Made by a program: the position numbers and the translations under genes. Below the pieces are notes generated by a model, which worked only from the letters and a program-made list of their open reading frames with translations, had not been told where the DNA came from and made no database searches. This document shows positions 2,161-50,200 of a DNA stretch of 64,000 nucleotides, piece after piece (the stretch's first letter is position 1; each line of letters begins with the position of its first letter). Source of the stretch: a virus (lineage: Duplodnaviria; Caudoviricetes); IMG/VR virus record IMGVR_UViG_3300042542_003367, positions 1,028 to 65,027 of that record, one strand, 5' to 3'.

Positions 2161-2917
2161 TGTGCGCTCCCCCCTCTTCTTCTTTCTTTTGTTCTTCTAC
2201 GTAACAGCCCGGACACAGCCCCAACTCGTCTTTAGTTATATCTGCACCGCAGACGACACAGGTGTATACTTCTTCTTTGTCCTGTTCCTCTTTTACTTTG
2301 CTCATAAAGCAAGAGACACACAAGCCCCAGTCTTTGTAGTATTCTTCGCATATCTCAATACCGCATTCTCCGCACTTGTGCGCTTCGGTCTCCAGTACCT
2401 CGCGCTCAGCGTTTAAGTCGCGCTGGATAGCATGACGTTCAGTGAACTTTTCTGGATACCGCGCACTCAGCTTGTTGATATTACGCGTCATCTCTTTCTC
2501 GAAAGTGGTGCTGAGGGTTTCACAGGCAATAGCCAGATACCACAGAATGTCGCCGATTTCTTCTTTTAAGTTAGTGGTATCCAGTTCCTTGCCGTAGAAC
2601 AGCCACTTCTTCAACGCGTCAGTGAACTCGCCAACCTCAGTAGTTAATCCCATCGCCGCGTGTTGCAGACGTATATAAACGGGACGACTCATGCGTTGTG
2701 CGATGATGTCGAAGTCCTGTGACTCTGTGCGCAGTGCGAGGTCGATATAGGTCGCCGCAGATGTCGATGACGCGACTTCTGATGTTCGCTTATAGAATAC
2801 CTTATGGCAGACAGGGCATTCTATTTTAACTTCATTGTGGGTATCTGTGTTCCCACTGATGTACTGTTCTGTCAGTTCGACAGTTGTATCGCATTCGATA
2901 CATTTGATGAGTTTCAT
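2135..2917 (-). CDS. MazG-like nucleotide pyrophosphohydrolase with flanking Zn-ribbon motifs
   Basis: HAAMGLTTEVGEFTDALKK...KEEIGDILWY MazG motif; CxxC pairs at both termini; start at MKLIK with ATGA overlap. Confidence 0.85.
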   Translation of the reverse strand: MKLIKCIECDTTVELTEQYISGNTDTHNEVKIECPVCHKVFYKRTSEVASSTSAATYIDLALRTESQDFDIIAQRMSRPVYIRLQHAAMGLTTEVGEFTDALKKWLFYGKELDTTNLKEEIGDILWYLAIACETLSTTFEKEMTRNINKLSARYPEKFTERHAIQRDLNAEREVLETEAHKCGECGIEICEEYYKDWGLCVSCFMSKVKEEQDKEEVYTCVVCGADITKDELGLCPGCYVEEQKKEEEGGAHNEAQESTN

Positions 2918-3159
2918 AGTGGCTTCTTCCACTCCTCGTTATATTCTATCACTGCAAGCATTATTGCCCCCAGAATGATGACGACAAAGACGGCAATATC
3001 AAGGACAACCATTGATAAGCATATTTTTGCTATTAGCCAAATATTTAAAGCTATAATAGCTTTACTTGCCATCCATGTTAATACCATAATCGAAGCGATG
3101 ATGTTGACGATTATGGATATTAAAAAGAACTTTTGCGTGAACGTCTTGATGTCTTTCAT
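2914..3159 (-). CDS. Small membrane protein
   Basis: Two hydrophobic segments; coupled to neighbouring genes. Confidence 0.6.
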   Translation of the reverse strand: MKDIKTFTQKFFLISIIVNIIASIMVLTWMASKAIIALNIWLIAKICLSMVVLDIAVFVVIILGAIMLAVIEYNEEWKKPL

Positions 3160-3160
3160 G

Positions 3161-4069
3161 CTACCCTTCCTCTTCTTCTTCGGATATTATTTTTCCAGCT
3201 AACGTGAGCAACATGCTTTTTGATTTATTCATTTTGCAAACATATTGCTGGTAAATTTTATCATCTCGCAACCGCCGGATATTTTTTGCCACTAATGATG
3301 CTAATACATCAGGGGATAACGCGTCTAATTCCCAACTGGAATATCCGAATTGTTCAATATATTTAGTTGCCCGACTGTCTGTGAGTTTCGCAGGATTTTC
3401 GGGTGGAGAATATTCTTCTACTTGTGACATGTTTAATGCAATACGATGAACATTAACATCACAACGAGAATACCTTTCTAATCGTGATTGCACATCGCGT
3501 GTCATATCCATACCGGACGGGTCATGGTCTCCAAGGTATATAACATGTAGTTCTTTACCATTGATACACTGTTTTCTCAACTGTGTGCCAATAGAATACA
3601 TGAGCGAGTCAGACGCATAACCTTTATTGGCTGTAAAAGAAACATCTTCTTGCAAACAAATTGGTTCCAATATTCCTTCCATTGCCTGTTTTTCTACCAT
3701 AACCATTACATAGTTAGGCTGATTCTCCCACAAATCTATTTTAAATTGGTCGGCGCAAGATTTTAATATTTCTCCTATAGAACTCCAATGTGAGTTACGT
3801 ACAGTTTCACGCCCCCTGTCAACAATATGCTCCCAGTCTATACATCCAGCATTTCTTGCTTCTGAGATGATGTTACCCAACATTTTGTAGTTAGATTCGC
3901 TATTGCTCCACTCAAAAGATAGCGGTTGACGTGCTACAAATTGATAGTATAATTGGCGCAAAGATAAATTATATCCCTGTAAATAATATTCGCGGCAGAT
4001 ATTGTTAGCCATATAGACTATTTCCTCTTTTTTAGGAGAAAATTGTATATCTATAAATTTCTCGTACAT
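3161..4069 (-). CDS. Topo VI-A/Spo11/JetD-like TOPRIM-domain protein
   Basis: LSLRQLYYQ winged-helix-like motif; VEK and YLGDHDPSG TOPRIM motifs; WELDAL. Confidence 0.75.
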   Translation of the reverse strand: MYEKFIDIQFSPKKEEIVYMANNICREYYLQGYNLSLRQLYYQFVARQPLSFEWSNSESNYKMLGNIISEARNAGCIDWEHIVDRGRETVRNSHWSSIGEILKSCADQFKIDLWENQPNYVMVMVEKQAMEGILEPICLQEDVSFTANKGYASDSLMYSIGTQLRKQCINGKELHVIYLGDHDPSGMDMTRDVQSRLERYSRCDVNVHRIALNMSQVEEYSPPENPAKLTDSRATKYIEQFGYSSWELDALSPDVLASLVAKNIRRLRDDKIYQQYVCKMNKSKSMLLTLAGKIISEEEEEG

Positions 4070-4070
4070 G

Positions 4071-4712
4071 CTATTCTCCTTTCTTTAGAATAAAGTCGTT
4101 GTTGTCCAGCCAGTGGATAGACGGCGAAAAGACATCGTACTTATTTGTCCAGACAAACCACGCGTACACCATCATACCTGTATGGACTTTACCATCTTCG
4201 CGCAGTGGCTCACCGAGCAACGGATACCGTGTAAACACGTACACTTCTGATAGCGGGAATTCTCTGTCACACCATATTTCATCATATCTCTGCTTACCGT
4301 GCAAGTATGACAACGGCAGAAGCATTGCTATTTCAGTTACACCGTTCGTCTCGCTCATTGACTTAGCGCGTTTGATAAACTCCATCGCCAGCGAATATGG
4401 CGGGTTGGTGATGATAGTATTGAACTCCTGCTTTCCAAAATCGTGCGTTAAGAAATCTATCCCCTGCGATAAATCAGTGGCGGTAATAACAGAACTCTCT
4501 CTATCCCCGTAACCATATTCTTTCAGGACTTTTACTATAGCACCATTACCACAAGCGGGTTCAAGAATATGACTACTGTAACCATTGCCATTAAAAAATC
4601 CTAACGTGTAAGTATCCAGAAATAATCTGGTCAAGCTATACGGAGTCTCATAGAAGTCCGACTCTTTGCGTTTATTGCTGACGTTGTTGGCAGAAAAATT
4701 CTTCCCGGTCAT
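4071..4712 (-). CDS. DNA N6-adenine methyltransferase
   Basis: DFYETP, LEPACGNG SAM-binding motif I, ITNPPY catalytic motif IV. Confidence 0.9.
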   Translation of the reverse strand: MTGKNFSANNVSNKRKESDFYETPYSLTRLFLDTYTLGFFNGNGYSSHILEPACGNGAIVKVLKEYGYGDRESSVITATDLSQGIDFLTHDFGKQEFNTIITNPPYSLAMEFIKRAKSMSETNGVTEIAMLLPLSYLHGKQRYDEIWCDREFPLSEVYVFTRYPLLGEPLREDGKVHTGMMVYAWFVWTNKYDVFSPSIHWLDNNDFILKKGE

Positions 4713-4930
4713 GCTATCACCATCGTCTCACCTTCGTGCAGTGCGTTATCCACTACTGCATCCGCGATGTTTTTCTGAGTGATTATCGGCACATCTACCA
4801 CATTGATAGTGTTGCAGTTCAGGCAAGTGATATTACACTTACCATTTTCTGTGATGCTGGTCTCCTGCTCAGGGTACAGCATACAGTTATCCTTTTTGCA
4901 GGATGAGCATTTGAAGTATTTAATTAACAT
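4709..4930 (-). CDS. Zn-ribbon protein
   Basis: CSSC...CLNC; start placed at MLIKY after a GAGAGG RBS. Confidence 0.6.
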   Translation of the reverse strand: MLIKYFKCSSCKKDNCMLYPEQETSITENGKCNITCLNCNTINVVDVPIITQKNIADAVVDNALHEGETMVIA

Positions 4931-5159
4931 AATCCTCTCTCTTTTATCGTTCACCTCTACCTGCCCGCGCACAGCAGGTTTCGGCTTACAGCGTCAACAT
5001 TATTCAGTTGTGAACTTTAGCGTTTTTTACTTTTTGTTAGATTTACTATTACCTTGTATCATGTGCGCGATACTCAGCGCGGAAGCATGCCCGCTTTTAC
5101 TCCCCGCACCATGTTGTGACAAAACGCCATTTTGTTGGGAGTAAAACTGTGTCGCATCA
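4931..5159 (-). ncRNA. Candidate structured RNA element B (intergenic)
   Basis: Helices read by eye on the minus strand: TTTTACTCCC/GGGAGTAAAA enclosing ACAAAAT/GTTTTGT and CAC/GTG; GCGG/CCGC; GTATCG/TGATAC; GTTCAC/GTGAAC enclosing CAAC/GTTG and ACCTGC/GCAGGT. Confidence 0.55.
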
Positions 5160-5411
5160 TCAGGTCAAACCGCGACGATGCCTGAAATGATTGCGGTACT
5201 GGCATCTCTTACATCTCCCCATGTGGGGATACTTTTTAACACGAATGAGATTATCACCCCATACCGCTATAGAAACATTCTCCGCCTTTTTACAGGCTGG
5301 ACATTCGACCTTGTATTGTACCATATTGTCTGACCCACAGGATAAACATACTTGTGAAGAATGCTCCTCGCCGCAATCAAGACACTTATGTACCGATATT
5401 TTATTAGCCAT
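5160..5411 (-). CDS. Multi-CxxC Zn-binding protein
   Basis: Four CxxC pairs; follows the promoter at 5431-5459 with an AAGGGG RBS. Confidence 0.7.
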   Translation of the reverse strand: MANKISVHKCLDCGEEHSSQVCLSCGSDNMVQYKVECPACKKAENVSIAVWGDNLIRVKKYPHMGRCKRCQYRNHFRHRRGLT

Positions 5412-5430
5412 ATTAACCCCTTACACATCT

Positions 5431-5459
5431 ATTATACCAAAATCAATACACTTTGTCAA
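5431..5459 (-). promoter_or_regulatory. Sigma70-type promoter with direct-repeat TCAATAC motif
   Basis: TTGACA-17bp-TATAAT. Confidence 0.85.
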
Positions 5460-5465
5460 TACATT

Positions 5466-5912
5466 TTACTCTGTTTCCGGCATTTTTTCTGCCGCGAAAA
5501 ACATGTCCCAATATTTGATATAATCTTCAACTTTCTTGAAGTATCCGTGTTTGAGGTATGCAGTTGTTTTGTGGCGATACACCACTTCATAGTTGTGGAT
5601 ATATGCCTGTGGGTCGGTAAATAGTGCAACGACATCTTCAATGCACCGGACGCAACACGCTTCTCCGCCCGCTTCCTGCCACTTGCGCATGAACGACAAC
5701 TGGTGTGCTGTGGGTCTACCCGCTATAACGAACGGGGACTTCACTTTGGCTTCGCAGAATACCACACGCCCTTTATAGATATTCAAGCGGTCGGGGATGC
5801 CAGCTTCCTGACCCATCGACGCGACGATTTTAACGCTCTTTGCGTCCTTTCCCCATGACTTGAACAGGTCTTTTATAGCCTGTGATAGCACTGTTTCGTT
5901 TTTATATGGCAT
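5466..5912 (-). CDS. VRR-NUC (PD-D/ExK) nuclease / resolvase-like
   Basis: E...GIPDR...FCEAK...Q...GG motifs; start at MPYKNE via TAATG overlap. Confidence 0.8.
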   Translation of the reverse strand: MPYKNETVLSQAIKDLFKSWGKDAKSVKIVASMGQEAGIPDRLNIYKGRVVFCEAKVKSPFVIAGRPTAHQLSFMRKWQEAGGEACCVRCIEDVVALFTDPQAYIHNYEVVYRHKTTAYLKHGYFKKVEDYIKYWDMFFAAEKMPETE

Positions 5913-6151
5913 TATTTTGACTCCGATTTTAGTTCGTCTATCCACATATATATAATCATAATTATTGATATACCACCTATGATTAATCCGCCTAACGGCA
6001 ATGACATAATCATTATTTTCAAGATTATATCCTCTGACTTGCTCAACAAAAGCTGAATACCCAAACATAAGCCATACTGCAAAGTTAAAATCATCAGAAT
6101 GATAATAAACGCAATCACAGATGCAATTATTTTGCGGATTATATTTTTCAT
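5912..6151 (-). CDS. Small membrane protein
   Basis: Two hydrophobic helices; ATGA overlap upstream and TAATG overlap downstream. Confidence 0.65.
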   Translation of the reverse strand: MKNIIRKIIASVIAFIIILMILTLQYGLCLGIQLLLSKSEDIILKIMIMSLPLGGLIIGGISIIMIIYMWIDELKSESK

Positions 6152-6570
6152 ACACACAACCTCGGATTATCCCAACTATTCCCGCGCACGAACATACGAT
6201 ATTCGTCGATAACGTCGTGCGTGAGCATTGTCATGTCGTTCCATTCCAACCCTTTCTCCAGCGACTTGATGATGAAACCACCCTCGCGGTAGAGTACATG
6301 GAATAACAGGACTTCGTGAAAACGATTGATGGCTTGCAGGACATCTCCTTCAAAGATGCCTTTACCATTTTTGTCCGTCACGCAAGTATACATGCTGATA
6401 GTATCAGCCAGCACTGGCTCTTCTGTCTGTATATAAGGGTCTTTGATGAAGTAGGTCTTAACCAGCATTTCTTCACCGTCTTCCCTTACTTCAATACGCA
6501 ACATGGTAACAAGGCTACCTATGACCCATCTACCCGTTGGTGTCTTTGCTCTACAGAATATGTCACGCAT
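6148..6570 (-). CDS. YopX family protein
   Basis: MRDIFCRAK...WVIGSL...YTCVTDKNGKGIFEGDV...GNSWDNP. Confidence 0.85.
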   Translation of the reverse strand: MRDIFCRAKTPTGRWVIGSLVTMLRIEVREDGEEMLVKTYFIKDPYIQTEEPVLADTISMYTCVTDKNGKGIFEGDVLQAINRFHEVLLFHVLYREGGFIIKSLEKGLEWNDMTMLTHDVIDEYRMFVRGNSWDNPRLCV

Positions 6571-6574
6571 TTAC

Positions 6575-6877
6575 TTATACTCCATATTTTACTTTAGCGT
6601 CGGCTATTAGGATATGGAAATAGTTTTTCATCTCTTGCTCACTCGCCCAAACATGAGATAGTTTAAAAGCTACCGTTCGAGGTTCCATACCTATTAAACC
6701 ATCTGGCTTCCTGATTTCTTTGACTATTATGTTATATCTATCCACTGATATAACATCTACGGCACGTACATCGTATGCTCGTATACCATCGTCGGTTAAC
6801 TGCGCACAATAAAGTGACACCCCTGTTAACTCTGAATCAAGGACGAGTTTTAAAACTCGCGCAAAGTGTTCGTTCAT
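6575..6877 (-). CDS. Hypothetical protein
   Basis: Coupled ORF with GGGAG RBS. Confidence 0.6.
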   Translation of the reverse strand: MNEHFARVLKLVLDSELTGVSLYCAQLTDDGIRAYDVRAVDVISVDRYNIIVKEIRKPDGLIGMEPRTVAFKLSHVWASEQEMKNYFHILIADAKVKYGV

Positions 6878-7350
6878 TTTTGTACTCCCTTTTTTAAAAT
6901 TTCAATAGCTTCTTGTAACAAAGCTACATCTTTCATCATTTGTGTTACTTGTTTTTTATAGAACTGTGCTTGATTGTCACTCAATAGCAGAACTCTTGAT
7001 GAGCGACATTTTCGTTGTTCTATATCTATATTTAATTCACCCTGTATCTCTTCTGCCTTTTTATGATAACGTTCAGATAATTCTTGAAGAGATTTTATTA
7101 GTGTAGGAGACACTACTACGCAAAACAATTGCGTATTACGATATTGCACGTTACTTTGTGACCCGGGCGGCGGATAAGAGTCGCGTTCTTTAATATTACA
7201 TTCATGGCACATGTTATCTGTAAACACCCTTCCGCGACGTAAATATACAGGGTCATCGCTATCTTTCCAAGGTCGGCTTACACCGCATCTTTGGCATACC
7301 CACATCTTAGGTTCTTTTTGACGTTTTTTAAACCAGTCTGACCAACTCAT
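6874..7350 (-). CDS. Hypothetical Zn-finger/coiled-coil protein
   Basis: CQRC and CHEC motifs; start at MSWSDW after AGGAG. Confidence 0.6.
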   Translation of the reverse strand: MSWSDWFKKRQKEPKMWVCQRCGVSRPWKDSDDPVYLRRGRVFTDNMCHECNIKERDSYPPPGSQSNVQYRNTQLFCVVVSPTLIKSLQELSERYHKKAEEIQGELNIDIEQRKCRSSRVLLLSDNQAQFYKKQVTQMMKDVALLQEAIEILKKGVQK

Positions 7351-7360
7351 GATTTTTCTC

Positions 7361-7615
7361 CTATAACTCAATAAAATAATACACACCATCTATATCACAA
7401 GCTAAACCAGTTTTCCCTTCTGTATTCGTGATATATCTGAGCGTATTTACAGGTACTTTGATTAAGGTATTCACAGTATTTATACGTACTGTATTATCAC
7501 AGTTTATGTTTATGACTTTATTACCCTCTCCTTCTTTGTACCAGCTTGAAGCTAACTCACTTACCTTGCTCCAGCGATGAAGAGAAAGATATAGTACTAA
7601 ATCAATGTCTGTCAT
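7361..7615 (-). CDS. Hypothetical protein
   Basis: Start at MTDID after AGGAG. Confidence 0.55.
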   Translation of the reverse strand: MTDIDLVLYLSLHRWSKVSELASSWYKEGEGNKVININCDNTVRINTVNTLIKVPVNTLRYITNTEGKTGLACDIDGVYYFIEL

Positions 7616-8045
7616 TATCTTTCTCCTGCAACAACGGAAGAACATCACCTATCAATTCGTTTATCTCCTGCTGTAAGATATGATAAGTACGCGATACCTC
7701 TTCTTTTGCCTGACGTAAACTCTTTAGCCTTTTATTGATACCCTGCATAGTGTCGGGTACTTCATTAATAGTTGTTTCTTCGCGCTCTGCCTTTTGCTTT
7801 TCAAATTCCTTTAATCTCTGGCTATTCATTTTTAGTGACGCTCGTGCTTTAGTTATATTCGCTTGGCATTCGTGGATAGCACCCTGAATAAAGCAGTCAG
7901 GACATAACCATCCACTGCAATCTTTTTCTTTTGCTGGTATATGTACCCATTTCCACCCAAACCCTCTGGCTTCCTCATAAATATGTTCTATTTCCACACG
8001 CAGTTCCATTCTGGTCTGGCATTCTCTGCATTCAATCGTAGACAT
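7602..8045 (-). CDS. Zn-ribbon plus coiled-coil protein
   Basis: CREC...GWKWVH...LCPDC. Confidence 0.65.
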   Translation of the reverse strand: MSTIECRECQTRMELRVEIEHIYEEARGFGWKWVHIPAKEKDCSGWLCPDCFIQGAIHECQANITKARASLKMNSQRLKEFEKQKAEREETTINEVPDTMQGINKRLKSLRQAKEEVSRTYHILQQEINELIGDVLPLLQEKDNDRH

Positions 8046-8347: not shown

Positions 8348-8376
8348 ATTATACCAAATTGTATTGAACTTGTCAA
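8348..8376 (-). promoter_or_regulatory. Sigma70-type promoter with inverted-repeat TGTATTGA-N5-TCAATACA
   Basis: TTGACA-17bp-TATAAT. Confidence 0.85.
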
Positions 8377-8830: not shown

Positions 8831-11362
8831 TTACATCTCCCAATCTATCGCCATAGCTGACGCTGGCGACGCAAGTATTAACGTTTCCGAAGCACGTGTG
8901 GCTCCCACGTAGAACACGCGGCGAATGCTGTCACGCTCTTCTTCTGTCCCGTTCCATTCGTTCATGCCTTTTTTAGATAAATCAGGCATCACAATAACTA
9001 CCTCAGCTTCTCCACCCTTAACACTATGTATAGTGCCAACGGTTAGTTTCGGCTTCGCATTTAGTGTGTCCTTGCCATAGAGTTGTGCTATGCGCAAGGG
9101 ATAGTTCGCACTTTCCTGATATTCATTTTTGAGTTGATTGTACCACCAGTCTATATCAGGCTCAGTTGTCACAAGACGAATGACTTCATCTTCTTCAAAT
9201 ATCTCCATCAGTGCTTCCGCAGATGATATACGATAAGCGAATTCTGACTGCCCCCACATCTCCAGCACTTTACTCGCGCCACGCTTAATCAGACCGTCTT
9301 TGATTTTCATCGCCGAAGCCCACAGCGCAATGTCCTGCGTATTCCACGGTGTGCTGTTAATCCCGTCTTTTAAAGAGTATTTCAGATACGCCATAATCCT
9401 TGCTATCATCTTCGCTTTTTTCTGCAAAGGGTTCCAGTCGCCGCGCTTCGGTCTGTACGTGTTGGAGAACGGCACACCGTTGTCCATTAATGACTTGATA
9501 GTAGGAGACAGCATATAACTGCATGATGCGAGTATCATGACTGTTTTACCATCGCGCAAAAACTTATCGGCTACCTCGCAGACATATTCAGGGTTTTTAT
9601 AATGGAACGCGGACGGCATATAACCTACCAGACCATCTTCGTCCTTACCTACAAATTCCTTCGGCTGGCGCACGTTGACACGTTCTATCCACTTCTTGGT
9701 GAACTTCAATATTTTGCGCGGCAGTCTGCGTGATAATGGCAGTACTTTTATGTGCTTTGGGTCTATGGCAGGGAATAAAAATGCTTCCGGTGACGCACCA
9801 GCGAAACGGTAAATGCAGTTGTGCGTCACTATTCCGTCTGCTATATATGAGTGGGTTTTCTCAACATTTAAACCCACAACATCTCCTTTATAGTATTCAC
9901 GGGAGACCTGTATCGGCTCCCATATAACCTTTCTATCTTGTGTAGGAATAGGTACACTCATAACTTCTGGCAATAAATTACAAGCAATCACTTTCATGTT
10001 TCTTGCGCCATAAACATTTAACGTACCCTTTTTAAAAATAGGGAACTCAGGGTATCTACCGCAAGCCGCCAAGCATTTATATGCCCGTGCTTTTTGTTCT
10101 ACTGGATTTAACCTTCCCCATAAATATTTTATAGATTCTGGATTAACATATCCAGCAATTCCTGCATTGGTAGGCTCAAAACATAAAGTAGGTATTCCGT
10201 ATTGTGCAGAATAGTAATTTTCTAACACAGAAGCATGTTGTCGGGTATCTGTTACTTCTAATACCCATGCTTCATCTGTATTTTCTTGTCTGCACCTCAC
10301 AGGTAAATGCAAACACCCATCTGCCCGCATTAATTTACACCACCCTATTTTCCATCTATCTGCCTGTCGCATCAGGTATACAACACACTGTTCACTATGA
10401 TGAGCATTGTTATTCATTCTTACTACCCACGGGTGATTATGAGTAGTAACTGTGGATAAATTTCCTACAGTTACTCTTACTGCGCTACCATCGTATGGAG
10501 TCCGTGCAATCTCTGTTACCACTTGATTACATTGTATTTTACTATGCGTAAAATTGTAACCTCTGATTTTATCTCCAATTTCTAAATCTTCGATATTTTT
10601 AACTGAATTATCCGACATTGTGATTTTTGTCCCCAAGACCCCTGCTTGGTCATCGTCCCCGGCTTTTAATACATACCGCATATTTTTCATCCATTTATTA
10701 ATTAAAGACAACTGCAAACGGCTACAATCCTGCACTTCGTCATATATCCCTATCTCCGGTCTATCAGGCGCATAGTCAACGTCGCGCAGACACCTGTAGA
10801 TTAAGTCGTTATAGTCAAGGCATCCGGTTTCATATTTCCATGTTTTCCATTCTTCCGCGAAGTCAGCCACATCATCAGGATAGCTTTCTTTCGGCTCCAT
10901 GCGTGAACGCAGGACGTTTAGCTGGCTTAATAACTTCGCACCTTCGAGGTCGTCAGAAGAAGGCATCTCGTCAAGGTCGTCCACACTGGCGGCAGAAGAG
11001 CCTGTTATCCGCCATTGTGGGTGACTGTCGTTCCAACTGCCGATAACCTTGTTAGTCTCAGCTATTTTAATGCCACCGCCTAACGCCTTATAACAGATAC
11101 TGTGGAGAGTACCGATATTCGGATACACAGTATCTTCGTAATCGTCCTCACCATACAGTGCCGCATTCTCTTTATCAATACGCGCTACCAGTTCCTTCGC
11201 CGCGCCCTTGGTAAAAGATGATATTAACACGTTCTGCAATATACCCTGCTGGATAAATTTTCGGATATATGTCATCAATGTATATGTCTTACCAGTACCC
11301 GGGCTACCGAAGAGTCTGTGTTCTGTGCCGTGTTGAACATTGTCATCTATGAAGTTGTCCAT
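8831..11362 (-). CDS. UvrD/Rep-like SF1 helicase containing an intein
   Basis: GSPGTGKT, SFT, TLHS, DEVQD, GDDDQ|intein|CIYRFAGA, TIHSVKGGE, RRVFYVGATRA. Confidence 0.92.
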   Translation of the reverse strand: MDNFIDDNVQHGTEHRLFGSPGTGKTYTLMTYIRKFIQQGILQNVLISSFTKGAAKELVARIDKENAALYGEDDYEDTVYPNIGTLHSICYKALGGGIKIAETNKVIGSWNDSHPQWRITGSSAASVDDLDEMPSSDDLEGAKLLSQLNVLRSRMEPKESYPDDVADFAEEWKTWKYETGCLDYNDLIYRCLRDVDYAPDRPEIGIYDEVQDCSRLQLSLINKWMKNMRYVLKAGDDDQAGVLGTKITMSDNSVKNIEDLEIGDKIRGYNFTHSKIQCNQVVTEIARTPYDGSAVRVTVGNLSTVTTHNHPWVVRMNNNAHHSEQCVVYLMRQADRWKIGWCKLMRADGCLHLPVRCRQENTDEAWVLEVTDTRQHASVLENYYSAQYGIPTLCFEPTNAGIAGYVNPESIKYLWGRLNPVEQKARAYKCLAACGRYPEFPIFKKGTLNVYGARNMKVIACNLLPEVMSVPIPTQDRKVIWEPIQVSREYYKGDVVGLNVEKTHSYIADGIVTHNCIYRFAGASPEAFLFPAIDPKHIKVLPLSRRLPRKILKFTKKWIERVNVRQPKEFVGKDEDGLVGYMPSAFHYKNPEYVCEVADKFLRDGKTVMILASCSYMLSPTIKSLMDNGVPFSNTYRPKRGDWNPLQKKAKMIARIMAYLKYSLKDGINSTPWNTQDIALWASAMKIKDGLIKRGASKVLEMWGQSEFAYRISSAEALMEIFEEDEVIRLVTTEPDIDWWYNQLKNEYQESANYPLRIAQLYGKDTLNAKPKLTVGTIHSVKGGEAEVVIVMPDLSKKGMNEWNGTEEERDSIRRVFYVGATRASETLILASPASAMAIDWEM
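9818..10645 (-). mobile_element. Intein (276 aa) starting with Ala, with a GIY-YIG-like internal domain
   Basis: Interrupts helicase motif GDDDQ/CIY; block A AGVLGTKITMSDNSVKNIEDL, block B TTHNHPW, C-terminus IVTHN followed by +1 Cys. Confidence 0.88.
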
Positions 11363-13075: not shown

Positions 13076-13144
13076 AAGTCCCCCGTATCGTTTTGCGTGA
13101 CATTAACTGTAGCAGATACGTGCTAAAAAGTAAAGACAATAAAT

Positions 13145-13174
13145 GTAGTGTCTGCCTGTGCAGACAGACACTAC
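13145..13174 (-). terminator. Intrinsic terminator-like hairpin
   Basis: GTAGTGTCTG/CAGACACTAC stem followed by a T-rich tract on the minus strand. Confidence 0.6.
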
Positions 13175-13197
13175 TGATAGATTTAACCGGAATTAAC

Positions 13198-15591: not shown

Positions 15592-15620
15592 ATTATACCA
15601 AATTGTATTGAACTTGTCAA
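15592..15620 (-). promoter_or_regulatory. Sigma70-type promoter, near-identical to the 8348 copy
   Basis: TTGACA-17bp-TATAAT; catctattataccaaattgtattgaacttgtcaataca is shared with 8343-8380. Confidence 0.85.
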
Positions 15621-20143: not shown

Positions 20144-20602
20144 TTAAAATACCTCTCTTTCGATACGTCCCATTGCGTCCCTGCTTGTCCAGCTTCCTCT
20201 ATGGTCGCATAGTTCCCCTGCTTCGTTGCCATCGCGCAGTCCATAAGGATACACAACATCCTCGCCACCACAGTACGGGCAGTCGACTAACTTAAACACC
20301 GTCACTGTAGTATTATCGTTCTCCAGTTCACAAGGCAGTTCCACATCCCAGATACGGCTGTCGCCTTCTGGGTACCATTGTTCTGTTCCGTTGCCTATCT
20401 GGTATCCCCACAGTTCACCAGCACCTTCTGGAATAATTATGGAGACAGGGTCGTCTATATCGCATGGCTCATAACGGACAGTTATCGTCGCTTCGTCCTG
20501 TGAGTCCTGCGTCAGATACTCTTCGATATGCGACATTAAAGTTTCAATGTTTTCAGGGGAGTATACCTTCCCCAGAAATTCATAACCGTAGATTGTTTTC
20601 AT
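20144..20602 (-). CDS. Hypothetical acidic protein with a Zn-ribbon motif
   Basis: Start at MKTIY after AAGGTGG; CPYC motif. Confidence 0.6.
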   Translation of the reverse strand: MKTIYGYEFLGKVYSPENIETLMSHIEEYLTQDSQDEATITVRYEPCDIDDPVSIIIPEGAGELWGYQIGNGTEQWYPEGDSRIWDVELPCELENDNTTVTVFKLVDCPYCGGEDVVYPYGLRDGNEAGELCDHRGSWTSRDAMGRIEREVF

Positions 20603-20632
20603 CTTACCACCTTTCACCGTTTAGTGTTTAAT

Positions 20633-20707
20633 AAAGAGAGGGTTAAAGGAATCGAACCTTTCATAAAGGTCATGAGTCTTATATGGTCACCGCGACTTCC
20701 CTCTTTT
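20633..20707 (-). tRNA. Degenerate tRNA-like element with CAT at the anticodon position (pseudo-tRNA-Met/Ile2-like)
   Basis: Perfect T-arm AAAGG-TTCGATT-CCTTT; loop CTCATGA; AGAGGG/CCCTCT acceptor-like stem; truncated D-arm GTCG-CGG-TGAC; no CCA. Confidence 0.55.
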
Positions 20708-20996
20708 GGTACTTTATTCTACTATAGGCTGTACCCGCCCGTCAGGTTTACTGCTACGTTTCCTGTGCCGCTGACCTTAGAAATATTATGTATTACCCCT
20801 CATGTCGTGTAAGCAACAACGAGGTTACAGCTTTTTCTTATTCAGCGTTTTCACTGGGACAGCTAATCGCCCAGCAAGGAACTCGGTATACACATCCCAG
20901 TGTAAAATCTTTTAGTTAGCAACTACCTCACAACTTTAGATTTACCATGTGACGGATAGGTTATCACCGCGTTTCCTGCTTACTGTATCACTACAG
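20708..20996 (-). ncRNA. Candidate large structured ncRNA A
   Basis: Starts at the predicted +1 of the 21003 promoter; no minus-strand ORF; helices CTGTA-GTGA-TACAG, CACTGGGAT/GTCCCAGTG, GCTGG-GCGA-TTAGC, GTAAATCT/AGATTTTAC, GCTGTA/TACAGC, GTCAG/CTGAC. Confidence 0.7.
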
Positions 20997-21002
20997 GACT
21001 AT

Positions 21003-21031
21003 ATTATACTAAATTAAATACACTTTGTCAA
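21003..21031 (-). promoter_or_regulatory. Sigma70-type promoter driving the ncRNA
   Basis: TTGACA-17bp-TATAAT. Confidence 0.85.
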
Positions 21032-21050
21032 TACATTTTAAGGATTATTT

Positions 21051-21308
21051 TTAATTATCTGCTAAATCTTCACTCAACAACTCTCGCACATATTGCTTCT
21101 TTATCCATAAATAATAAAACAACTGCACAAGGCATACTGTGGCGTATGCACCAATGGCGATATATAAAATAGGTGGCAACCTCTCTTCCAATATAACGTG
21201 CGGGATATGCGACATAATGAGAATAGCCAACATAAATTTATACTCATTTATCAACGCTGTACGTGCATCCCAAAATTTCTTCTCTAACTTTTGCAATTTC
21301 TCGTTCAC
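21051..21308 (-). CDS. Small membrane protein
   Basis: Two hydrophobic segments; GTGA overlap. Confidence 0.6.
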   Translation of the reverse strand: MNEKLQKLEKKFWDARTALINEYKFMLAILIMSHIPHVILEERLPPILYIAIGAYATVCLVQLFYYLWIKKQYVRELLSEDLADN

Positions 21309-24810: not shown

Positions 24811-24869
24811 CGGACACACACCTTCCGCCGGAGAGCCGTAACTCTCCGGCAAACATAATATCCCGCAGA

Positions 24870-26216: not shown

Positions 26217-26525
26217 TTATCGCGCCTGTGCGATAAAGCGGTCAGTCCCGGGGATTTCTATAACAGTGGTATAATCTTTTACATCGTCCAGACTATCCCA
26301 TTCGCGGAACGAGTGCTGGTCGGCAAATTGCTCGAAACTTTCCCATTCGTAAAAGTCACAGGCAATAGCCACAACGTCCAGTTCGGACTCAATATCGCAT
26401 CCTGCGTCACACTCTTCAAGGAACGCAAACAACGCTTGCAGACCTTCGTAAGAAAAATGTTCGCGGTATGACTCTGACCTTCTGAACGAGTCAATAAAAA
26501 GATTCTCTGTGACTGTTATTTTCAT
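26217..26525 (-). CDS. Acidic early phage protein
   Basis: FSYEGLQALFAFLEE...ELDVVAIACDF; many Asp/Glu. Confidence 0.75.
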   Translation of the reverse strand: MKITVTENLFIDSFRRSESYREHFSYEGLQALFAFLEECDAGCDIESELDVVAIACDFYEWESFEQFADQHSFREWDSLDDVKDYTTVIEIPGTDRFIAQAR

Positions 26526-26575
26526 TCTGTACCCCTTCCTGCTATAAGCAGTGTCTCTCTCTTGATTACGTATAT

Positions 26576-27404: not shown

Positions 27405-28361
27405 TTACTTTAAAGTAATATACATCCGGTTGTTATCGAACTTTGACCACATGCACTTCACATCGCGGTAACTGTTAGATACCGACATCGTTGATTGTTT
27501 CTGAGCGTGTGCAACTTTCTTAACGGTAAATTCTTGCCCGCCGTAACTCTTAATCACTGTGCCACGCTTTTTCAGGTCGTCCACGGTTGCAAGGCGATAA
27601 CCTTCCGGCATTGCACTCGCTATCTGCTGTATCCATGCTTCTTTTTCAGCTTGCTTAATACGCTTTTTCGCATTCTCTTCTTCTGCGCGTTGCGCCCAGT
27701 ATGCTTTGCTCTCTTCATCCTTAACGCGCTCTGCTTCCGCTTGTACCGCTTGTGCTTCCACAATCTGGTCAGCAGTCAGTCCGGTCAAAGTCTGAATAAA
27801 CTGGTCAACATCACACTCCATGATATAAGACAGGTCAATGATAATATACCATGTGGGTAATCCCCACATCTTTAGCGGTTGACCAACGGCAATGTTACCA
27901 TGACAGAATTCCATCGCGGGCTTACCAAAGTTGAAATAAATTTCCTCAGCGTCCTTCATATCCTTACAACTGGTGAATACGTGGAAGCCGTTGCTATCCA
28001 TTTGTGTGCGCCAGATATTATCGAATGAGCGGAGACTGTGTGCTATTGCCCGCTTTTTACCTATGTCAATAGCGTTATACTTCACGCCCAGACTCTTATT
28101 ACCATTCTGAATGAGATTTTTATACACAACTCCACTACCTGTGTAATTCCACACGCCGTGAACGGTAATTTGTGTCTTATAAGTTAATATCGAAAAGCCC
28201 TGATTTTCCAGTGCCAACATTGCTTCAATAGACAGTCCACCTTCCAGACTGTCAACTATATCCTGTGGAATAACCTTGCCCGGACATAAATTATTGCCCT
28301 TGCGGGTGTTGGTGAACGTGTCACTGGTATGCAGTACTTTGTCTATTTTCTGGTAATTCAT
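27405..28361 (-). CDS. Hypothetical early protein
   Basis: 318-aa ORF behind its own promoter and AAAGGGG RBS. Confidence 0.75.
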   Translation of the reverse strand: MNYQKIDKVLHTSDTFTNTRKGNNLCPGKVIPQDIVDSLEGGLSIEAMLALENQGFSILTYKTQITVHGVWNYTGSGVVYKNLIQNGNKSLGVKYNAIDIGKKRAIAHSLRSFDNIWRTQMDSNGFHVFTSCKDMKDAEEIYFNFGKPAMEFCHGNIAVGQPLKMWGLPTWYIIIDLSYIMECDVDQFIQTLTGLTADQIVEAQAVQAEAERVKDEESKAYWAQRAEEENAKKRIKQAEKEAWIQQIASAMPEGYRLATVDDLKKRGTVIKSYGGQEFTVKKVAHAQKQSTMSVSNSYRDVKCMWSKFDNNRMYITLK

Positions 28362-28411
28362 GGTTTGCGCCCCTTTCTGCCGTCGGCAGTACGTTTCTTA
28401 ATTACGAGTAT

Positions 28412-29361: not shown

Positions 29362-29592
29362 TTAGTTAACGCTGATATACTTTAAACGCTTGAAATTTCT
29401 GTAGTCACCTTTGCAGATGTAAAAGCCCACAACGTATTTGCCCCGCATTATCTGAGATACGCGCTGTCTGGCAATATCTACCATATTAGAAAATCGTAAC
29501 CGCCCGTCCAGTGGCATACAACCGTCACTACCGCACATCGGCGCAGGTTCACCACTTAAACCGTTTACGTAATACTCAGCGAAATACTTCAT
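29362..29592 (-). CDS. Small early protein (GSDG...LDGR motif)
   Basis: Own promoter and AAAGGGG RBS. Confidence 0.7.
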   Translation of the reverse strand: MKYFAEYYVNGLSGEPAPMCGSDGCMPLDGRLRFSNMVDIARQRVSQIMRGKYVVGFYICKGDYRNFKRLKYISVN

Positions 29593-29640
29593 AATTTACC
29601 CCTTTCTGCCGTCGGCAGTTCGTTTCTTATTTACAAGCAT

Positions 29641-31287: not shown

Positions 31288-31533
31288 TTAGTTCGCTGAG
31301 TTAATCAACTTCACTAAATCATCCTGTGAAACTTTCTGTGCGTCACCATACCCGGCTAAATTAATATGTTGACTGGTAGTGCGGGAAAATTTCTCACTGG
31401 TTTGATACTTGTGGATACCGTCACGTAAAATCGTCACCGCTACAGGTGTGGAATAAGAGAATAAAATTCTCGCATTGCCCACAGTTACGATATTGCAGTT
31501 GGTTGCAATGTTGTCTAATTGAACGTTTGGCAT
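31288..31533 (-). CDS. Small early protein (SYxTPVA...SxTTxxH pattern)
   Basis: Pattern recurrent in phage early regions; own promoter. Confidence 0.7.
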   Translation of the reverse strand: MPNVQLDNIATNCNIVTVGNARILFSYSTPVAVTILRDGIHKYQTSEKFSRTTSQHINLAGYGDAQKVSQDDLVKLINSAN

Positions 31534-31585
31534 TCTTTGTACCCCTTTCTACCCGCAGGTAGTAACCTTTCTTTATTACGCATAT

Positions 31586-31882: not shown

Positions 31883-31951
31883 TATACCCCCCCTTTCAGT
31901 CTGTGCAGACTGTAAAAACCATTTAAAATGTGTAAACCTTATTACCCCTAT

Positions 31952-31980
31952 ATAATACCATAATCAATACAGTTTGTCAA
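31952..31980 (-). promoter_or_regulatory. Sigma70-type promoter
   Basis: TTGACA-17bp-TATTAT; hairpin at 31897-31912. Confidence 0.75.
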
Positions 31981-32481
31981 TAGCACAATATACCCACACG
32001 GCAGAAGTATTATATATAAGATTAAAAGAATACTATACTAAACTGCTAAAAATTAGTTAAACCAGATTAATACATATTTAATTAATACTTAACGTTTAGT
32101 TTAATTAATGAAATGATGAAAAATTAACTAAATTTTAACTAATTTTATTAATCGTTTAGTTTTTTAATGGTAAAAAAAATCATGCCGATTTTTAGAGAGT
32201 CTACCCTAAACATTAGAATTGACGATTTATAGATACCAGATACAACCAAAATACGCCGGATTTTAACCGAAATTGACCAAAAACACACAGACACACCAAT
32301 ACCCACACACAAACAAATAACAGACAACGGGGCATGAGTTACAATACACCCCAGAAATACACCAAAAACCGCGATTTTTTATCGATATAGTTTTATCGAT
32401 TAAAATAGTTTTGTGATACAAACGTTGCAATATTGATACTGTGGGCTGTGGGGCTGTGATTCTACTCTCAATGGCGTATAG

Positions 32482-33424: not shown

Positions 33425-33465
33425 GGATGCAGAAATTAAACGGCATAAGCCGGAAGGGGTACACT

Positions 33466-34032
33466 ATGAACGAATTACAATTTACCATCAAGCGCGGAGA
33501 TGTTGAGAAGCGTATCAACGCAAAGTCAGTAAGTGGTAGTTATAATCCGGGCGAACTCTTTATTGAGTTATCACCCGCACAAGTGAACAATATCAACAAA
33601 CATTTTAAAATTGACAGTGACACACTGGTGATTACCTGCCACAATGATATATGTTTTATAAAGGAAATATCTACCCGTCGAAATGGTAATTTAAGTATGG
33701 TAATACAGGTTAAACCTGCAACCGCGCACGAAAGATGGCAAGCACAACAAAAGGCAAAAGAATTAAGATTAAAGAGAGCAGAAGCAAGCATACAGGCGCG
33801 CGCAGAAGCTGAAGCACAGACACAGAGAGACACAGAAGCACAGGCGCAGGAAATTACACTGCAATTCCAAGCCGTAACTAAAATGGGTAGTATGGTCAAT
33901 GCGTCTTTTAAAATTGATATTAATTGCAGTATGGCACAAGTGGAAAATCTGCTGAGAGACTCGGGATACATCCAATATCGCGTAATAGGTATGGATAAAA
34001 TGATTAAATTAACAGGTAACATAGACAAGTAA
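33466..34032 (+). CDS. Hypothetical protein
   Basis: Start at MNELQ after GAAGGGG. Confidence 0.7.
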   Translation: MNELQFTIKRGDVEKRINAKSVSGSYNPGELFIELSPAQVNNINKHFKIDSDTLVITCHNDICFIKEISTRRNGNLSMVIQVKPATAHERWQAQQKAKELRLKRAEASIQARAEAEAQTQRDTEAQAQEITLQFQAVTKMGSMVNASFKIDINCSMAQVENLLRDSGYIQYRVIGMDKMIKLTGNIDK

Positions 34033-47211: not shown

Positions 47212-50200
47212 ATGAATAATAACGAAGATAGAACTGCGGCAGATGTCACGGCTGGCTTTAATGCTATGGCTGGTGGTTTTGCGATAGCATCGAATATTCG
47301 TGACCAAGAGATGGTTGCAAAACAGGGATATGTTTCGTTTCAAAAGTCTATATCTGCTAACGCTTTTAAGAAGAAACACCCTGATTGGAAAGAAGTTAAA
47401 ACAGGGAATGAATTTCGATTTTATCCGCCTAATTCTGCGCCAACTCAGCGTCCCCCTTACTCTCATCAATGGCAGGGCAAGGATGTTGACAAACAGCAAC
47501 TGGATATAATTAATCGCCGTTCGTTGCAGTTGCATGCAGGGAAGTCTAATGTTGACCCATCTGACACGAATACTCATGCAAGATATGACAGTTTATTAAA
47601 TCGTTTAGACATGCGTGGTGCGGCTATTGAGGTGCGTAGTGGAAATGTAATAGAGCGTCCTGAATTTGAGGGTTCTACTTTATCAGGTTTTACCGAAAGT
47701 AATCGCCAGCAGTTCCCGAAGCCAGCAATTAACGAAAATCTAAAAGGTTTTTTTAGTCCTATTAAATCATCTTTTGATAGACGTAAGAAATTGCCCTTGC
47801 CGAAGGTGCTTGACCCTTCTCGTATATCATGGCAAACGGGTGTGACGCAGAATGATTCAAATAATGTCGATAGGAGTGTTTTAAGAAACACAGATAGTGA
47901 ACATAATCAAAAACGCCGCAGAAATCTTCAAGAACGACGAGAACGTGTACAGGCGCGTTGGAATGAACGTAAAGAAAGAATAAAAAATACACCATCTGTT
48001 GATAATGATACTCCGACACCTGTAACAAAAGTACCAAAGCAACGCACACCCAAAAAGCCGAAAAATGACGATACTGTCCACATGCGCGTAAAAGAAGGTG
48101 GCGGATTATCACTGGCAGTTCAGGGAGTCGTCTTGTGTGGTGCGCCTAATAAACCTCGTTCGGTGAAATATGGTTATATAGAGAATGTTACTTGTCCGAA
48201 GTGCAAGAGTATTTACGAAAAGGAAAATGCTCCTGCTAATAACTTATTTACGAGTAGTACTCCTGCGCTGGAAAATCCGAATGAGAACGTTCCGGTATTA
48301 AATAATCAGACACCTGTTATACCACCAACCAGCAGTAATGTGGGTGGTTCAGGTTCCAGCGGCGGCTCCGGTGGTAGCACTGGTGGTTCAGGCGGTTCTA
48401 CAGGTTCCAGCGGCGGCTCCGGCGGTGGTAGCAGAAAATCTAAAAAGCCGAAAATTATCCATTGTATTAATGACGAACGCGGTGTGCGGTGGTGCGGTCA
48501 GCCTATAGGTGCTGATGATGTGACAGAGATAGCGAAAGCCACCTGTTTGAATTGTCAACGCGCATACGCTAAACACGCGTCGCCATCTCCACGCAAGAGT
48601 AGTTCAGGTGCGCCAGAGGGCGAAGAGCGGATGTCTTATGAAGAAGCCGTATCATACCTGCACAATTCTGCGGCGGATGTCACGTTAAGCAATAAGGGTG
48701 TCAACCCACCTAACGTGGCTAACGTAGGCAAAAATAAGAAGTATGCAGGTCATCGTGGTCTGCCTGACGCACTGACAGCCGAAGCGTCGTTGACATCGTT
48801 CGTTGAAGGTGATTTAGAAAAGATAACAAGGCGCACATATACTGCTGATAAGACAGATATGAAAAAGACTCGTGCGTCAGCGTTGAACGTCGCCCGCGAC
48901 CTGCCAGCGTTAAAGGCGCAAGCCGCTAAGGGCAAAGTTCTCATTGGCAATCTTAAAAAAGAAATGCTGTCTGCTGATGATGAAACAAAGCGGGCGTTAG
49001 AAGCCGTTGTCACTAAGAAGCAGGAAGAACTGGAGTTAGTAAACAACGAAATTATACGTTTAACTGCGGCAGAGAAGGATATAAAAAACGTTTACAAGTC
49101 TGTGGGTACTTCACAGTATCAGAAGCGTATTAATCAAATATCGAATGCAAAGTATGCGGCAGACCCACAGAAGAAGATGGACGCGCTCGTTAAAGAACGC
49201 GATGCGTTGCAGAAAAAGATGCGCACAATGGACGTGTCCGACCCTGCATATCAGTCTGTCCAGAAAGGTGTGGGCTTATATAACACGCAAATAAAAGAAG
49301 CTGAACGTCAGGTGATGATAAAGAAGGCATCTACCGATGTGTCTGCTTTGCATAAAGATATTTCTTACTCTGCTATAACACAAGATAGCAAGTTAGATTT
49401 GACACAAAAACGTATCAAAGAATTTCAGGATTTAAAAGATACAGCACCGAAGGGTGATAAGATGATTGCTTATTACACGAAGGTGTTGCAACTGCTGAAA
49501 GAAGAAGAAAAGCAGTTACAGAAAAATATTAAGTTGGATGAGCAACAGGCGCGAGTTACTATAAAGCAAGTGGCAACTCAAACTCGTCAGGAGACTATCC
49601 CTGAATTAATGCGCAAAGCTAAAGGGGATGCGTTAAAAGAAATCAGTTTGTTGCAAATGGAAATAGCTAAAGAACAAGCTATCGTTGATAATAAAGATTC
49701 TACCTCACGGATGAAGGCTATCGCGGAAGCGAAGGTAAAAGAGTATAAAAACGCTCTTGCCAAGTTAGGCGACCAGACGGTATTACGGGAAGTCAGTAGA
49801 CTACAGGGTATAGCGTCCGGCGATGGCAAACAACATCGCTTAGGTAGTTTGGAAGCTAACCAACAGGCGCAGGCGACATATTTAGCTTTAATATCTGAGT
49901 CAGCGAAATTAAAAGATAGAACAGATTTAGACCCGAAACAGAAAGCGTCTATATCTCACGCTTTGCGAGGATTAGAAGTAGGTGCGTTCTCCGTTATGCG
50001 CGGTACATCTGCTGAATATCTTAATCAGGCGAAGATTAATATGGAGACAGCTAAGGCGAGTAGCCTTGGCGAGATGAAAAAGTTCTTAATGACCTTACGA
50101 CAGGATATGTCTGTTACCCGTGGTCAAATACAGAGTATGCTCGGCAAGCCGGGGGAAAATTTATTACGGTCTCAATTAGCGCAACAGCGTCAGATGGAAC

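Follow-up and report, generated by a model that had tools for sequence, protein, structure and literature searches.

The 229-nt gap that separates two minus-strand genes in the early arm of this phage (B hereafter) is tentatively read here as a putatively transcribed, non-coding spacer between cistrons, forming a long 5′ leader for the gene following it (g4930). B carries no coding signal, its folding is unexceptional, and it belongs to no known RNA family; its anatomy is listed below. Its resemblance to a second and longer leader of the same arm (A hereafter) is a borderline signal of short linear words, without evidence for a common fold. An earlier note on this DNA had described a structured intergenic element of about 230 nt related to A. 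The gap itself, the shared words and a 10-bp stem were recovered as that note described them; the three-way junction was not, and the region did not fold better than shuffled sequence.

4931..5159, minus strand: B, the 229-nt non-coding intercistronic gap, from the stop codon of g5160-5411 to the start of g4709-4930
5431..5459, minus strand: promoter of B's operon, a perfect sigma-70 site (TTGACA-17-TATAAT, TG-extended)
5160..5411, minus strand: upstream gene (g5411), encoding the 83-aa protein P0001 with four CxxC motifs
4709..4930, minus strand: downstream gene (g4930), encoding the orphan 73-aa CxxC protein P0002
4933..4940, minus strand: Shine-Dalgarno sequence AGAGAGGA of the downstream gene, read from the sequence, strong and directly before ATG 4930

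Genome setting

The window, meaning the whole 64,000-nt stretch that was analysed, is nearly the entire 65,027-base IMG/VR virus record, which has direct terminal repeats, and near-identical DNA is present in lake-water metagenomes. The source is an orphan siphophage-like genome of an uncultured freshwater lineage, and searches of viral and metagenome collections gave no close relatives for it. Terminase, portal, protease, major head protein and tape-measure protein (2527 aa) are encoded on the plus strand from about 33.4 kb, while the minus strand from 33.3 kb down to position 1 forms the replication and early arm. The tape-measure protein (gene at 47212-54795, plus strand) is very long, and its Pfam TMP_3 match is limited to residues 1078-1264. 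On the early arm, a UvrD-type helicase gene (8831-11362, minus strand) is interrupted by an intein (Pfam Intein_splicing, residues 247-515) and is similar, at ~29% identity, to helicases with inteins from SPO1-like Bacillus phages. The early-arm genes are tightly packed on the minus strand and, in a simple gene map, non-coding gaps of more than 200 nt are few, B and A being among them.

Eleven perfect sigma-70 promoters (TTGACA-N16-18-TATAAT, mostly N17) were found in the window between 5431 and 33424, against 0.05 expected; ten lie on the early arm and the remaining one drives the late arm. Their spacers are near-identical or strongly conserved, and the copies at 8348-8376 and 15592-15620 are identical over 29 nt. 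A promoter-module profile recovered all of the minus-strand promoters (10/10), together with a near-consensus 11th site at 31936-31983. As far as the cited descriptions go, this organisation recalls the PeSL regulatory cassettes of T4-type phages (PMC2839356, PMC4122927) in that 11 near-identical promoters are present, early-promoter cassettes are repeated in the early region, and in a close relative a module-sized segment immediately behind one promoter has been replaced. B differs from such cassettes, as there described, in having neither a promoter copy nor a terminator stem-loop, so that the cassette idea fits the neighbourhood and not B. A PeSL-type identity for B was accordingly discarded, the promoter-module profile finding no copy in 4931-5159.

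Borders and neighbouring genes

The upstream gene starts 20 nt past the promoter at 5459-5431 and ends in two stop codons. Its product P0001 has one homologue (67% identical, 88 aa, on a 543-nt contig), and since that protein ends within four residues of the same place, B is not the decayed C-terminus of the upstream gene. P0002 has no database entry other than its own, in which an internal Met is taken as the start and the protein is given as 57 aa. This public call starts at 4882 and would extend the gap to 277 nt; ATG 4930, used here, has the stronger Shine-Dalgarno sequence.

Consensus scans found no promoter on the minus strand of B and no minus-strand terminator-like site in 3000-8000. 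Having no promoter or terminator of its own, B would most simply be part of the transcript that starts at 5459-5431.

Several known classes of element were considered for B. Rfam 15 gave no match at the gathering score for the whole window and none at E ≤ 10 for 4880-5220. No intron-free tRNA was detected in B even at the 70% threshold, and a plus-strand 'tRNA-Phe' with a 193-nt intron that was called at this threshold was judged spurious. A group I intron was rejected, with no Intron_gpI match in B at E ≤ 10; such a reading also fails because the downstream gene has its own Shine-Dalgarno sequence and the upstream gene stops where its homologue does. The idea that A and B arose by segmental duplication together with paralogous flanking genes was dropped, as no paralogy was found between those genes.

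Coding potential

The ALTERNATIVES checked were small ORFs, a lost C-terminal extension of P0001, membership of HP4 (see below) in a leader family of the phage, and plus-strand sites. The longest minus-strand ORFs in B are of 43 aa (28 aa when counted from an ATG overlapping the stop of the gene before it) and 31 aa. Their codon log-odds of 0.00-0.07, compared with 0.22 ± 0.11 for real genes, fall between real genes (5th percentile 0.02) and off-frame reading (95th percentile −0.04) and are uninformative. Positions 5208-5027 are tiled by two open stretches, each 44-45 codons long and of borderline codon score; one of them is opened by a TGATG stop-start overlap, a type of junction also present at real gene pairs here. 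A conserved small ORF, which the earlier note had named as a possible alternative account of the region, was looked for in B, and neither a conserved nor a convincing one was found.

That B encodes a 28-aa protein (ORF 5160-5074) translationally coupled to g5411 through the TGATG overlap is the least probable of the readings considered, and we give it very little credence. The ORF does exist, with its ATG overlapping the upstream stop codon, and its codon log-odds of 0.00 exceeds the off-frame 95th percentile of −0.04. The same value is, however, below the real-gene 5th percentile of 0.02, no Shine-Dalgarno sequence precedes the ORF, it would account for only 87 of the 229 nt of B, and it is without homologues.

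Folding of B

Three parts of B are referred to below.

5095..5146, minus strand: HP1, a hairpin of 52 nt, imperfect, standing on a basal stem of 10 bp (5146-5137 with 5104-5095)
4982..5061, minus strand: A-rich tract of 80 nt, 45% A, unstructured, holding five of the words shared with A
4959..4979, minus strand: HP4, a 7-bp hairpin (ACCUGCU/GGCAGGU) with a 7-nt loop, ~18 nt upstream of the Shine-Dalgarno sequence

A structured RNA in B is not supported, and only HP1 stands out. The minus-strand fold of the whole gap has a z-score of −0.90, its stability being equalled or exceeded by 37 of 200 shuffles, and its minimum free energy (MFE) structure makes up 0.27% of the ensemble. A folds equally unremarkably (z −0.79), and the description of the two regions as structured elements is not supported by these folds. 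The plus strand of B gave a z of −1.40.

The 10-bp stem that had been proposed to close a three-way junction exists, at 5146-5137 with 5104-5095; in the MFE structure it closes one long imperfect hairpin instead. This hairpin, HP1, has a ΔG of −19.9 kcal/mol and a z of −1.88 (11/200 shuffles as good), and, once corrected for G+C, ranks 23rd among the early arm's 3324 windows of 60 nt. Its arms of 19 nt are 79% complementary, and above the continuous 10-bp stem there are only fragments of 2, 3 and 2 bp. The G+C-rich segment 5100-5060 has competing small stems and a z of +0.41. Further 3′, the tract holding the shared words is among the least structured of the early arm: windows in 4991-5070 fold at −2.2 to −3.1 kcal/mol per 60 nt, ranking 2780-3134 of 3324, and the 3′ 140 nt of B have a fold z of 0.04. 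HP4 is the last hairpin before the downstream gene (ΔG −10.8 kcal/mol, z −1.10, 31/200 shuffles as good). A perfect 8-nt inverted repeat (5062-5069 / 4966-4973) brackets the shared words; it was given no weight, with ~0.7 such pairs expected by chance per 300 nt on a rough estimate.

An intrinsic terminator or attenuator in B was rejected, as there is no minus-strand site and both HP1 and HP4 are without trailing U-runs. The most stable intergenic hairpins of the early arm lie elsewhere, at 13140-13176 and 24826-24860, both on the minus strand. The former has a perfect stem followed by a U-rich run and is likely an intrinsic terminator after g13198, while the latter is G+C-rich, lies directly before a ribosome-binding site and has no U-run.

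The early mRNA of T7 carries intercistronic hairpins at which RNase III processes the transcript. HP1 resembles these in being imperfect, in having an internal loop and in lying between cistrons of what is predicted to be an early transcript of the host polymerase. It differs from them in that its continuous stem is of 10 bp only, and no clear equivalent of it is present at the corresponding place in A.

The phage also has a leader family of its own, represented by four short leaders.

26523-26575, 28359-28411, 29590-29640 and 31531-31585, minus strand: phage leader family, after promoters 26576, 28412, 29641 and 31586, respectively

The four share one design, with ATA-N3-GTAAT, AAGAAA, a 5-bp hairpin, GAAAGGGG and the ATG. 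A covariance model built from them (R1) scored its four training leaders at 58-65 bits and the leader of the late promoter (33427-33468, plus strand) weakly, at 15.3 bits. By eye, HP4 followed by the purine-rich AGAGGUG has the same hairpin-plus-Shine-Dalgarno layout as the hairpin-GAAAGGGG leaders. Membership of HP4 in this family was rejected: the E-values from a profile HMM were 42 for B and 20 for A, and R1 found nothing in either at E ≤ 10.

Words shared with a second early leader

The region with which B had been compared is the leader A, and the words found in both are listed with their start in B and then in A.

20603..21002, minus strand: A, a leader of ~390 nt after promoter 21031-21003
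5046 / 20945, minus strand: GTAAATCTAA
5026 / 20851, minus strand: AAAACGCT
5007 / 20845, minus strand: CTGAATAA
4992 / 20831, minus strand: GCTGTAA
4981 / 20749, minus strand: AAACCTG
4966 / 20740, minus strand: GGGCRGGTA
5061 / 20990, minus strand: TGATACA, a seventh word beyond those of the earlier note

All the words listed in that note are present on the minus strand of both regions and in the same order. They occupy 56 of 104 nt in B (4958-5061) and are spread across 259 nt in A. Of the composite CTGAATAA-N5-8-GCTGTAA the window contains two copies, where 0.01 would be expected. The pairing of ACCTG with C(A/G)GGT that had been pointed out is possible in both regions, and at the RNA level ACCUG/CRGGU is kept through a U-A to U-G difference; the hairpin is weak in A (−5.7 kcal/mol, z −0.39).

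No alignment method recovered the relation. Comparison with shuffled controls placed the pair inside the shuffled distribution, an outcome that the earlier note had named as speaking against its inference, with a Smith-Waterman score of 21 against 19.6 ± 2.6 (299/1000 shuffles as good) and 145/500 shuffles as good in a permissive local alignment. With nhmmer --max there was no match at E ≤ 50 in either direction, and MAFFT on A and B aligned just two of the words.

Chains of collinear exact words gave a more mixed result. Chains as good were obtained from dinucleotide shuffles in 13/500 cases at k = 5, 34/500 at k = 6 and 0/500 at k = 7. Natural control windows, taken on both strands from the rest of the window and from 180 kb of unrelated phage loci (240 kb in total), reached the chain score of 52 in 1 of 4124 cases with A as the query and 1 of 2362 with B. 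When all pairs of the 12 non-coding gaps of the window were compared in both orientations (132 comparisons), A and B came first with a z of 4.21, followed by pairs at 3.59 and 3.05. After correction for the 132 comparisons P is ~0.03-0.06, for a word length k that was chosen post hoc. The exception among the natural windows, a control at 47601-47770 on the minus strand, antisense to the tape-measure gene, shares eight collinear 7-8-mers with A and scores 56, which demonstrates that chance can yield such a picture. The collinearity that had been called striking is thus the best among the gap pairs and rare in natural windows, and is nonetheless exceeded by this control. The similarity of A and B may be real, with chances somewhat short of even; it is statistically borderline and not established. 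The words lie in the least structured part of B and would, if functional, be linear motifs rather than helices.

Region A itself lies in a gap of 448 nt including the promoter (20603-21050). Its extra segments hold self-contained hairpins, such as that at 20851-20910, which ranks 7th of 3324 windows. Just downstream of its shared words, at 20636-20706 on the minus strand, is a degenerate tRNA-Met-like element. Its T-arm is perfect and its anticodon loop carries CAU, but the acceptor stem contains mismatches and the D-arm is poor; it scored 17.1 bits (E = 1.1) as Rfam tRNA-Sec and was called tRNA-Met by ARAGORN at the 70% threshold only.

Relatives and homologue searches

A contig from run X3 spans 4677-5602 at >99% identity with seven differences; among the six that are listed, one lies in B (4985). 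The counts of one change in the 229 nt of B and six in the 697 flanking nt of the same contig indicate that B is neither more nor less conserved than its flanks. Runs X4 and X5 had no depth at the listed variant positions of B, and no conclusion was drawn from them there.

For A, a contig from run X4 matches 20407-20627 and 20910-21058 with flanks ~95% identical, and has 219 other letters (joint side 149) instead of the 282-nt segment 20628-20909. The segment replaced is the core of A, which contains the tRNA-like element and five of the seven words. A core that is exchangeable among strains argues against A as an indispensable conserved RNA and fits a plastic, cassette-like early region.

More distant relatives were sought by several routes. 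Neither A nor B had a blastn match among 50,697 phage records. In scans of IMG/VR and JGI metagenomes anchored on proteins, the methyltransferase-like protein of g4071 led to 30 loci (≤57% identity over the full length), g3161 to one and three loci (44-46% identity) and the major capsid protein to one partial match, while the gene after A, used as an anchor in the same collections, gave no loci. All of these matches were distant and non-syntenic, tblastn of the neighbouring genes detecting no synteny at the anchored loci, and blastn of A and B against these loci produced matches only of ≤21 nt with E ≥ 0.099. A 21-base motif-chain pattern had one match in IMG/VR, on the opposite strand inside a gene, with about one expected on a rough estimate; a DNA pattern scan for the promoter pattern common to both loci had 0 matches. 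As homologous DNA was not found in these searches, no covarying homologues were obtained, a second outcome that the earlier note had named as speaking against its inference.

Alternative explanations

The earlier proposal was that B and A are two diverged members of one RNA family, and in its stronger form they would be a new family of cis-acting structured leader RNAs controlling the downstream early genes, with conserved joining motifs and variable inserted helices. The words on which this proposal was built stand; alignment, folding and the retention of the A core do not bear it out, and we consider the family improbable. In its favour are the chain score of 52, reached in only 1/4124 and 1/2362 natural windows and placing the pair at the top of 132 gap comparisons, the composite CTGAATAA-N5-8-GCTGTAA found twice where 0.01 is expected, the survival of the ACCUG/CRGGU hairpin through a U-A to U-G change, and the self-contained hairpins in the extra segments of A (20851-20910, 7th of 3324). 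It is opposed by the alignment-based tests (Smith-Waterman, permissive local, nhmmer and MAFFT), all negative, by fold z-scores of −0.90 (B) and −0.79 (A), by the location of the words in unstructured sequence, by the chance control that scores 56 against A, by the close relative in which the A core with five of the seven words is replaced, and by the absence of any matching Rfam family. Equally improbable, or marginally more so, is that B and A are two copies of an undescribed phage leader RNA, in which single-stranded GUAAAUCUAA, AAAACGCU and CUGAAUAA-N6-7-GCUGUAA together with the ACCUG/CRGGU hairpin would be recognised by a factor of the phage or its host; the words would be set apart by inserted helices that vary, and the element would set the expression of the downstream early genes.

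The similarity could also be chance, and B the functionless debris of small-gene gain and loss in a plastic early region. We hold this to be unlikely, though well above the improbable readings just described. In its favour, the corrected P is just ~0.03-0.06, a control region is no worse a match to A than B is, the two 44-45-codon stretches tile 5208-5027 with borderline scores and one has a TGATG overlap, and a close relative replaces the A core. Against it, a stretch of 229 nt of inert DNA is rarely retained where phage genes are packed this tightly, and no protein homologue identifies a lost gene, P0002 being an orphan and the homologue of P0001 ending alike; the single change per 229 nt in the X3 relative also speaks against debris, though the flanks are equally conserved. 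Finally, the functional unit may lie on the other strand or in the DNA itself, which we regard as very improbable. On the plus strand an antisense RNA would run from a promoter-like site (5034-5062, 9/12 matches) to a terminator-like hairpin (5213-5240), both on that strand, whose fold z is −1.40; but the numbers of promoter-like sites (18 vs 14.9 ± 3.7) and terminator-like sites (4 vs 3.2 ± 1.9) are at chance level. As DNA, B would hold a protein-binding or invertible segment bounded by a 9-nt inverted repeat (5039-5047 / 5140-5148). In run X2, a single contig of low depth has the reverse complement of 5147-5158 fused to 5042, exactly at this repeat, and B contains four copies of AGTAAA, where ~0.18 would be expected from the density of this hexamer across the window. 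That junction is a single 12-letter loose end, either of inversion type or a fold-back artefact, no invertase gene was present among the 40 proteins scanned, and the AGTAAA enrichment was picked post hoc.

Proposed role of the leader

On the preferred reading of B as an intercistronic spacer and 5′ leader, polymerase from the sigma-70 promoter at 5459-5431 would read through the 83-aa gene into B. HP1, in the 5′ part, might act as a processing structure or a 3′-stabilising structure for the upstream message. The A-rich single-stranded tract, the small hairpin and the strong Shine-Dalgarno sequence would uncouple translation of g4930 from that of g5411, the tract perhaps giving ribosomes an open loading region. 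The words shared with A, unless they are chance, would be linear motifs, or remnants of one leader cassette common to both in a region prone to recombination, rather than helical parts of a discrete structured RNA. Selection on motifs would leave exact 7-10-mers of this kind, with intervening spacers that differ in length and do not align, so that the words may have a specific function at the RNA or DNA level.

The value of the check is mainly negative, in that a collinearity noticed by eye was matched by an unrelated control and was gone in alignment tests, and the predicted helices did not outdo shuffled sequence. Were the minority reading true, B and A would represent a new class of cis-regulatory RNA in a lineage of freshwater phages that is uncultured; the class would be moderately interesting, and with no host to work in it would be difficult to pursue. 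As it stands, B is best described as an ordinary feature of its genome, a long non-coding leader inside a phage early operon.
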